NCBI GenBank assembly: GCA_018266795.1
Contig: JAFDZV010000036.1
Span: forward strand, 26,971 to 90,970
Length of the DNA stretch: 64,000 bases
Reading direction: 5' to 3'
Source: Bacteroidota bacterium
GTDB taxonomy: Bacteria; Bacteroidota; Ignavibacteria; OLB7
Every line of letters starts with the position of its first letter. Position 1 is the first letter of the stretch. A model generated the notes under the pieces. The model searched no databases. It worked only from the letters and a program-made list of their open reading frames with translations, and was not told the DNA's origin. Positions 9,119-10,429 of the stretch are shown here, one piece after another. Made by a program: the position numbers and the translations under genes.

Positions 9119-10429
9119 ATGAGTACCAGGAAAAAATCCCCGGATGGGGATGCCGGGCGGCCGGCACCGAAGACGCCCGGCGATCCGCCGTGCAATCCAG
9201 GCTCAACCTGGAGCTATCTGATCTTGAACGGAATCACCGGCCCGGAGGGGCCCACGGGAGCCACCGGGGATACGGGGCCGACGGGTGATACCGGCCCTGC
9301 CGGCCCGCAAGGCGATACCGGCCCTACCGGACCAACCGGTGCCACCGGCGCGACTGGTGCCACGGGTGCGACAGGCGCCACCGGTGCCACCGGTCCGCGA
9401 GGCGCCACCGGCCCTCAGGGGCCGATCGGGTTCACCGGTGTGATCGGCCCGATTGGTCCAACCGGTCCGCCCGGCGTTACCGGCGCCACCGGGGTGACCG
9501 GGCCGATCGGGTTCACCGGCCCGCGCGGCGTCACCGGCGCAACGGGAGCGACTGGAGCTACAGGTCCGCAGGGCGCCACCGGTGCCACCGGCCCGCAGGG
9601 ACCGTCGAACGGTCAAACGGGCGCGACCGGCGCCACCGGCCCGCGCGGAGCAACGGGTGCCACCGGAGCAACGGGCCCTGCCGGCCCGCAGGGCGCCACC
9701 GGCCTGCAGGGGGCTACTGGCGTTCAGGGGCCGCCCAACGGCCCCACCGGTCCGGTCGGTCCAACGGGTCCGACCGGTCCTCCCGGAGCGACCGGTGCCA
9801 CGGGCGCGGGAGCTACCGGCCCGCAGGGCGCCACCGGCGCGACAGGACCTACCGGGCCGCGGGGCACCACCGGGGCCGCGGGGCCACTCGGTCCCACGGG
9901 GCCATGGGGTCCTCCGGGCGTTACCGGTGTGACCGGCCCTCCGGGAGTATGCGGCCCGTGCGGCGGCAACTACGGTGCGTGCGGCCCTCTGGGATACTAT
10001 GGCGACATCGGCTTCGGCGTGACAGTGCAGACGATGCTGGTTGAGCTCATCATCGAGGCGGGCACGACGGCCCGGCTGGTGACCGATCTGCAGACGCGGT
10101 TCGTGGTGAAGGCGGGAGGGCCGGATCCGATGCCGGGGAGTGCAACCACGGACACGATCACGGACTACGTGATCTCGAAGTTCGCCGTGTCGCAGTTCCT
10201 GACGATTCTTGCCGGGTACTTCACCCTGCAGGCAGGCATTACGATCCCTCCGTACAAGGGAGCCGAGGAGCTGTACATGGGCGACCTCTGCAACTCGATC
10301 AACGCGCAGGGCTGGTCATCGCCGCTGCTGCGGATGCTGGACAAGTTCCTTGTTGCCGATCCGGGCGCACCGGTAAAGGTGGAGTGCCAGTACGGCGCAA
10401 CGGGCGTCTCGGGTCCGAAGGGGCCGTAG
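9119..10429 (+). CDS. Collagen-like triple-helix repeat protein, about 436 aa, with ~230 aa of Gly-X-Thr/Gly-Pro-X triplets plus a ~155-aa C-terminal globular domain.
   Basis: Translation shows [28 protein letters not shown]...GATGATGATGATG with occasional SNG/PNG interruptions. The DNA is a 9-nt-periodic tandem repeat (ggcgccaccggtgccacc...) from about 9230 to 9960. The C-terminus [32 protein letters not shown]... is non-repetitive, as in BclA or phage-fibre-type collagen-like proteins. Confidence 0.8.

Follow-up and report, generated by a model that had tools for sequence, protein, structure and literature searches.

A threonine-rich collagen-like protein in a giant-protein operon of a Bacteroidota bacterium and a candidate SgtA-related enzyme for its modification

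What does a collagen do in an operon of giant proteins? The question is raised by a 64,000-nt stretch of contig JAFDZV010000036.1 from a Bacteroidota bacterium (hereafter the window), where a collagen-like protein (CLP) is encoded upstream of a 1191-aa partner protein (p1191) and is flanked by two giant proteins, one of which carries a LysM match. On balance, and with moderate confidence, we read the CLP as a structural homotrimer that forms a glycosylated, triple-helical stalk of ~70 nm and acts as an accessory fibre or tether of an assembly of p1191, presumably co-transcribed with it, and the LysM giants. Below we give the evidence for the gene and its product, for its association with the p1191 and giant genes and for the glycosyltransferase (GT) proposed to modify it, and then weigh the competing explanations. 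The coordinates of all features are collected in Table 1.

Relatives were surveyed by one scan per sequence collection. With p1191 as the query, the scan of reference genomes returned a sole relative, contig DASZRW010000120.1 from a Candidatus Kapaibacterium (Bacteroidota) metagenome-assembled genome (L001), which is 86% identical in nucleotide sequence to the window over 9077..14513. The comparison set comprised the window and 39 fetched loci (L001-L039), and gene content was read by tblastn over those obtained via the giants and via a p1191 alignment; one of the 39, L003, is a scaffolded metagenome-assembled genome without usable gene context.

The CLP gene is real, translated and under purifying selection. 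Its product matches Pfam Collagen (PF01391) with an E-value of 1.3e-31 and 108.5 bits, compared with a gathering threshold of 27.2 bits, and the GC content at third codon positions (GC3) is 0.76, typical of real genes in the window. L001 has an ortholog at 7203-8519 whose protein is 86% identical. For this pair of genes the Nei-Gojobori dN/dS is 0.147, with values of 0.135 for the repeats alone and 0.146 for the C-terminal part, and dS is ~0.6. The start codon at 9119 is supported by L009, whose open reading frame (ORF) allows no start earlier than that of the homologous 'MATRK...'. A spurious ORF in GC-rich DNA was considered as an explanation and rejected on the dN/dS of 0.15 and the conserved orthologs. 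An exact look-up of the protein sequences of the CLP and of the MBL-fold protein encoded downstream of p1191 gave no record in public assemblies.

The Gly-X-Y triplets fall into blocks of 42, 14, 7 and 17, the longest unbroken run being 42, rather than into the ~230 aa of uninterrupted triplets that had been predicted originally. The commonest triplet is GAT (26 copies), followed by GPT (10), GPQ (6), GPP and GVT (5 each) and GDT (3). Thr occupies the Y position in 49 of the 80 triplets (61%), short of the 'nearly every Y' first claimed, and the X position is Pro in 36 (45%) and Ala in 27. The collagen-like region has eight charged residues, or ~0.1 per triplet. With its Pro at X, Thr at Y and few charges, the composition is BclA-like rather than Scl2-like, and the assignment to a Thr-rich, BclA-like type thus stands.

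A near-perfect 9-nt tandem DNA repeat, of a kind prone to expand or contract, had also been proposed, but the DNA does not have this character. The protein repeat goes far beyond what chance would give, but the DNA that encodes it is a degenerate repeat: over the 732 nt, self-identity at period 9 is 0.535, and exact period-9 runs reach 9 nt at most. The Gly codons are mixed (GGC 34, GGT 21, GGG 14, GGA 12), and Tandem Repeats Finder reported short arrays only, with 60-81% match, the best period-9 array having 6.7 copies at 76% match. Nor is there a sign of instability in the comparison with L001, since the arrays have 80 and 81 triplets, respectively, at a dS of ~0.6, with all three interruptions at matching places. 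The dN/dS and the ortholog's array together point to a translated repeat under purifying selection with little change in length. A hypervariable contingency repeat was accordingly rejected as a candidate, given the degenerate DNA and the stable array. The window and L001 were assembled independently and their arrays agree, which argues against mis-assembly; the contig of L036 breaks off inside its own collagen array, leaving the side upstream of its CLP absent, and caution about assemblers is reasonable in general. Across the family, full-length CLPs have 74-87 triplets despite very different triplet compositions, and this near-constant number suggests a constraint on length. Thr at Y ranges from 47% to 93% in these full-length members (86% in L009) and is 7% in the last 28 triplets of the partial L036 protein. 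If triple-helical, the window's region would make a stalk of ~70 nm (244 residues at a rise of 0.286 nm).

The two ends of the stalk differ in how they are conserved. Directly before the first triplet is the motif TWSYLILN, and a six-frame search of the 39 loci and the window with the expression [ST]W[SN]Y[LAIVM][LAIVM]L[NSQ] gave five matches only, all of them in CLPs (window, L001, L004, L009 and L035). The protein has no signal peptide, hydrophobic N-terminus, transmembrane (TM) segment or LPXTG. After the triplets comes a non-repetitive C-terminal part of ~155 aa (aa 282-436), as originally predicted. At the helix end, C278, C281 and C288 are invariant between the window and L001; L036 has 'GPCCTG' at the equivalent point and L035 has no Cys there. 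This Cys-rich junction is a possible inter-chain disulfide knot or staple. The C-terminal domain that follows (C-domain) is an orphan. Of the 1.84 billion cluster representatives searched exhaustively with HMMER, only P0023 (1.5e-20) and P0024 (3.2e-17) were relatives, both of them CLP fragments, and a word-index search of 5.8 billion proteins found no homolog. Neither the domain nor its relatives matched a Pfam family at E<=10, no PDB relative was found by sequence or profile search, and there was no match in 2.9 million viral contigs or in JGI metagenome contigs. These searches, and an all-helical model of low confidence, lend nothing to the suggestion of a C1q/TNF-like head.

Other family members end differently. 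L009 has a C-terminus of ~170 aa with three helical-looking repeats and L004 one of ~35 aa; neither is detectably homologous to the window's C-domain, and hhalign between the window-type domain and the L009 C-terminus gave no homology. The CLP family thus has a common N-terminal motif and stalk with different C-terminal ends. Short Gly-X-Y tails like that of the window's protein are present in L001 (GAKGASGPKGG) and L035 (GDSGPTGP).

The 5' end of the gene is also unusually conserved. Upstream of the 33-nt leader, the window and L001 sequences are unrelated. The leader itself has no Rfam match and its RNA folding is unremarkable (z -0.76). Together with the first 36 codons (9086-9229), it has 93% nucleotide identity to L001 at a dS of 0.04, compared with ~80% and a dS of ~0.6 in the remainder of the gene. 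A translation or regulatory signal and a recent gene conversion are both possibilities for this excess conservation. The motif TAnnTTTG is absent from 8742..9118, and a sigma-70 promoter and terminator scan upstream of the CLP was uninformative, as expected for a Bacteroidota-type organism.

The placement of the gene inside a giant-protein cluster was confirmed. The ORFs 9..8741, 9119..10429, 10685..14260, 14264..15637 and 15555..25769 all lie on the + strand, with little space between them, and the CLP lies between the first giant ORF (2910 aa) and the second (3404 aa). The giants are paralogs with 39% identity over ~1780 aa. The conserved core of the giants, at aa 451-750 in giant 1, is predicted to be a long-strand, barrel-like beta meander; this core has 22 homologs, including ones from Acidobacteriota and Saprospiraceae. 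The LysM repeats and the barrel-like core of the model suggest an envelope-associated assembly. Apart from the LysM motif of giant 2, the giants had no sequence match in Pfam, NCBIfam, PHROG, PADLOC or PDB, and p1191 had none in the same collections. Searching the giant-core model with Foldseek returned nothing significant from the PDB and no convincing fold match from BFVD, in which one borderline hit was an unnamed 179-aa protein (E 4e-04, TM 0.26/0.48). The core has no relative in viral contigs.

A p1191 homolog followed by a giant was found in every locus long enough to show both, these being 28 JGI metagenome loci, four ENA contigs, one Logan contig and one IMG/VR contig. The window, L001 and L035 have the CLP gene directly 5' of the p1191 homolog. 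The L004 copy is placed between a giant and a second p1191-like gene, and the L009 copy is 4 kb upstream of p1191, separated from it by two GT genes only. At least 16 loci without a CLP have, upstream of p1191, a protein of ~350-410 aa with no Pfam match (e.g. L002:6357-7409 and L006:4488-5720). This ~400-aa protein was never alongside a CLP in the fetched loci, and neither hhalign nor BLASTP detected homology between it and the CLPs; it may be an alternative accessory to the CLP.

Which enzyme might modify the CLP? The candidate is a multidomain GT encoded 18 kb downstream, a link that the original prediction had offered as speculative. Its gene lies in the ORF 28808..32428 on the - strand, with a likely start at 32323 that agrees with the earlier placement and is fixed by an end-to-end alignment: residues 36-399 (31232..32323), a GT2-TPR module, align with residues 1-353 of P0129 at 40% identity (E 4e-79). 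P0129 represents a cluster of C. difficile proteins; it starts with MITISLCMI and ends with HNENYFSKFKNS, the termini encoded by the sgtA cloning primers (PMC7157674). From these primer-derived termini and the cluster names, P0129 is confirmed as C. difficile SgtA. SgtA consists of a GT-A domain and four TPRs; its substrate is BclA3, in which it attaches beta-O-GlcNAc to Thr within the GPT repeats, and the sgtA gene neighbours bclA3 in C. difficile (PMC7157674).

Related enzymes are tied to the system in three lineages, and directly to the CLP in one. In L009, an 875-aa GT begins 21 nt after the CLP stop codon on the same strand, its N-terminal module matching the window GT with E 3e-25 and SgtA with E 2e-19, and is followed by a Mannosyl_trans3 enzyme. 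The SgtA-like module had no match in the 31 CLP-less loci among L001-L034, and an SgtA-like GT was not seen in the readable parts of L001, L004 and L035. The window GT has no TM segment which, with the lack of a signal peptide in the CLP, fits a cytoplasmic modification as for spore collagens. The CLP's Thr residues are probably glycosylated by this nearby SgtA-related enzyme. The speculative link has gained support from the homology to SgtA and from GTs lying 21 nt from a CLP (L009) and 6 nt from a giant (L038), and the CLP is a candidate substrate.

Further observations concern the GT and its neighbours. In L039:2654-4890, an SgtA-like GT2-TPR protein and a GT4 protein are encoded side by side by separate genes, with 53% identity in each case to the corresponding portion of the window GT. 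In the window enzyme these portions are fused, together with a methyltransferase and a second GT2. A pYEATS and YLATT three-TM protein (25886-26938) and an Acyltransf_2 protein (27202-28452), both on the - strand, are encoded co-directionally with the GT and convergently on giant 2, and may share an operon with the GT.

Table 1. Features of the collagen-like gene, its product and associated genes in the window
Feature	Coordinates	Strand	Remarks
Giant protein 1	9..8741	+	2910 aa; paralog of giant 2
Conserved leader	9086..9118	+	33 nt directly 5' of the start codon; 31 of 33-34 positions identical to L001
CLP coding sequence	9119..10429	+	ATG at 9119, stop codon included; 436 aa; Pfam Collagen, GC3, dN/dS
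N-terminal motif TWSYLILN	9206..9229	+	aa 30-37, directly before the first Gly-X-Y triplet
Collagen-like region	9230..9961	+	aa 38-281; 80 Gly-X-Y triplets in 4 blocks
Interruption 1	9608..9610	+	extra Asn164 (GPS-N-GQT); kept in L001
Interruption 2	9737..9739	+	extra Asn207 (GPP-N-GPT); kept in L001
Interruption 3	9803..9808	+	two-residue step Gly229-Ala230 (GAT-GA-GAT); G-V there in L001
Cys-rich junction	9947..9982	+	aa 277-288, C-terminal end of the helix
Orphan C-terminal domain	9983..10393	+	aa 289-425, ~130 aa
Short Gly-X-Y tail	10394..10426	+	11 aa at the C-terminus of the CLP
p1191	10685..14260	+	1191 aa; partner gene downstream of the CLP; 93% identical in L001
MBL-fold hydrolase-like protein	14264..15637	+	probable start M37 at 14372; weak Lactamase_B, ComEC and LmuA-type matches
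Giant protein 2	15555..25769	+	3404-aa ORF, probable ATG at 15654; LysM 1.3e-06; 78% identical in L001
Multidomain GT	28808..32323	-	GT2, TPR, methyltransferase, second GT2, GT4/GT1 (Pfam); candidate CLP-modifying enzyme

A mechanism can be proposed from these parts. The CLP, having no signal peptide, would be made in the cytoplasm, where the C-domain and the Cys-rich junction would nucleate and staple three chains; the Gly-X-Y region would then zip into a triple helix, with the three interruptions as kinks. Also in the cytoplasm, the enzyme encoded at 28808..32323 would O-glycosylate Thr at Y with its soluble SgtA-like module, and its methyltransferase, GT2 and GT4 domains may extend and decorate the glycan. 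Sugar on Thr stabilises triple helices that are free of hydroxyproline, as in BclA and annelid cuticle collagen. Finally, the motif (TW[SN]YL.LN) would dock the fibre to p1191 or to a giant.

Several observations weigh against this reading. The CLP, p1191 and both giants all lack signal peptides. Around 30 of 35 loci with p1191 and a giant have no CLP (no Gly-X-Y ORF), from which the CLP fibre appears to be dispensable for the core system; conversely, there is no p1191 in the 6 kb downstream of the L036 CLP, even though this protein shares the window's C-domain. The single-sequence AF2 model of the C-domain is all-helical and unreliable (pLDDT 42), unusable for a fold search. On the side of the enzyme, the window GT is 18 kb from the CLP on the opposite strand, and the SgtA-like family is very large: with the GT's N-terminal module as the query there were >7300 proteins at E<=1e-10, most of them GT2-TPR proteins of ~358 aa from Firmicutes, and with a family of this size homology to SgtA does not fix the substrate. 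Lastly, in L038 only 6 nt separate the closest stand-alone homolog of the GT (52% identity) from a giant homolog, and no CLP is visible on the 8.7-kb contig, so the giant itself could be the substrate.

The L038 arrangement makes an enzyme that acts on something other than the CLP a serious alternative. The CLP would then belong to the giant-protein system but be unglycosylated, with the GT acting on a giant, on p1191 or on a polysaccharide, and the Thr reflecting the composition of a collagen helix. We regard this as possible, at a clearly lower probability than our preferred reading. It would also account for the window GT being co-directional with the acyltransferase and pYEATS/YLATT genes and not with the CLP, and for the scarcity of Thr at Y in the visible part of the L036 stalk, and it fits with a GT family that is huge and diverse. 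However, the one directly adjoining GT, in L009, is separated by 21 nt on the same strand from a CLP with 86% Thr at Y; the GT is absent from all 31 loci among L001-L034 that lack a CLP; and the only biochemically characterized member of the family at hand acts on Thr of GPT collagen repeats (PMC7157674).

The other two rivals detach the CLP from its neighbours altogether. In the first, the CLP would be a free-standing Scl1/Scl2/Lcl-type adhesin, exported alone to bind a host or substrate ligand, and its neighbourhood would be coincidental. The streptococcal Scl1/Scl2 and Legionella Lcl adhesins are, like the CLP, bacterial triple-helix repeat proteins, and their NCBIfam models (NF038330, NF038329 and NF046116) do match the repeats below threshold (Lcl 1.5e-40, SclB 1.1e-35, SclA 7.5e-26). 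The scores, however, are 3-4 fold under the family cut-offs (139 against 500 bits for Lcl, 123.5 against 325 for SclB and 91.7 against 400 for SclA), and only the repeats are covered. The CLP lacks the signal peptide, TM segment and LPXTG, as well as the Lcl C-terminal domain, and is Thr/Pro-rich, with ~0.1 charged residues per triplet, unlike the charge-rich Scl2-type helices. Its recurrent position upstream of p1191 in other lineages also argues against coincidence, and we consider such an adhesin unlikely. Still less probable, in our estimation, is a collagen-like phage tail fibre left by a prophage and unrelated in function to the neighbouring genes. CLPs are carried by E. coli O157 prophages (PMC3368898), and the window's protein matches the PHROG tail-fibre families phrog_6320 (4.9e-55) and phrog_5073 (3.2e-51), among others. 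It shares with such fibres Gly-X-Y repeats with Thr and Pro, the lack of a signal peptide and C-terminal domains that vary between members, as if exchangeable, and one p1191-giant locus comes from an IMG/VR viral contig (L037, IMGVR_UViG_2541047519_000001). But the PHROG alignments lie within or mostly within the Gly-X-Y region (roughly aa 22-317). A phage tail-fibre chaperone signature, named in the original prediction as a pointer to a prophage remnant, was looked for in the C-domain and none was found; the 2.9 million viral contigs held no relative of this domain, and viral contigs none of the giant core, for which BFVD gave only the borderline match. The four neighbouring proteins have no phage structural match, bar one MBL-domain match, and no phage genes adjoin the CLP. 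Its synteny with p1191 is kept across five divergent lineages, L037 carries a resolvase, DUF927 and CapR but no tail genes, and ordinary chromosomal genes fill the rest of the window (SusC/SusD, RF, MnmA, UvrA).

Amongst known systems, the nearest parallel to the glycosylated stalk that we favour is BclA/BclA3, the exosporium glycoproteins of Bacillus and Clostridioides difficile, with SgtA. The likenesses are a Thr-rich Gly-X-Thr region of similar length, the absence of a Sec signal peptide, a distinct C-terminal domain after the helix and an SgtA-family GT-A+TPR enzyme in the wider neighbourhood (40% identical in the window, at 18 kb on the other strand; adjacent in L009). There are also differences. 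The host is a non-sporulating Bacteroidota (Kapaibacterium) rather than an endospore-forming Firmicute; the C-domain resembles neither BclA_C nor C1q, nor the C-terminus of BclA3 with its four described TM segments; the N-terminus carries the new TW[SN]Y motif in place of an exosporium-targeting region; the partners are p1191 and the giants instead of exosporium basal-layer proteins; and, unlike SgtA, the window GT has methyltransferase, GT2 and GT4 domains fused to it.

Some features of the wider neighbourhood deserve mention. The MBL-fold protein between p1191 and giant 2 has a hydrophobic N-terminus, 'MRRINAAVYLLLLTIAVAAHAA', indicating a signal peptide. It is only 43% identical to its L001 counterpart, compared with 93% for p1191 and 78% for giant 2 on either side, and the gene would appear to be locally hyperdivergent, or replaced, inside a conserved operon. 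A PG_binding_1-domain protein is encoded upstream of the CLP in L001 (1651-3756) and L035 (949-2580), the two being 47-49% identical; in the window, giant 1 takes that side. In L037, which is classed as viral, the p1191 homolog and two ~1600-aa proteins lie beside DUF927, a resolvase and a CapR-domain protein, a context that resembles a mobile element; tail genes are not present. Further away in the window, a bpMoxR-type AAA+ ATPase gene (45130-46455, - strand) adjoins that of a vWA protein (43616-45130, - strand), and such a MoxR and vWA pair (43616-46455, - strand) is a signature of the MoxR-vWA ternary conflict system.

Extending the favoured reading beyond the window, the CLP may be the glycosylated fibre or tether of an undescribed apparatus widespread in soil bacteria (Acidobacteriota, Bacteroidota and others). 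Its core would be p1191 and a giant of 1500-3400 aa with a porin-like beta-barrel segment and LysM-type peptidoglycan-binding repeats; without Sec signals, assembly or export would follow an unfamiliar route, and the CLPs and the unrelated ~400-aa protein would be exchangeable first-gene accessories. We put this forward tentatively, as a proposal more doubtful than the role of the CLP itself.

Collagen-like proteins of bacteria have been described before, mainly from Firmicute spores, adhesins of pathogens and phage fibres, as has the SgtA-BclA3 pair. New here are a CLP family of environmental bacteria that do not sporulate, marked by an N-terminal motif of its own and an orphan C-domain, the tie between this family and a giant-protein operon that lacks annotation, and the presence of an SgtA-type enzyme in that setting; full-text literature searches found no description of this CLP family, operon and enzyme. 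The family that the CLP defines is small and belongs to environmental Bacteroidota and their relatives, and the operon occurs in dozens of soil metagenome contigs. That an SgtA-type enzyme and a Thr-rich collagen are paired beyond the Firmicutes as well leads to a testable prediction, namely O-glycosylated Thr on a non-spore collagen. The CLP also provides a handle on the function and location of the unannotated module of p1191 and the giants, which is more novel than the CLP itself and merits separate study.

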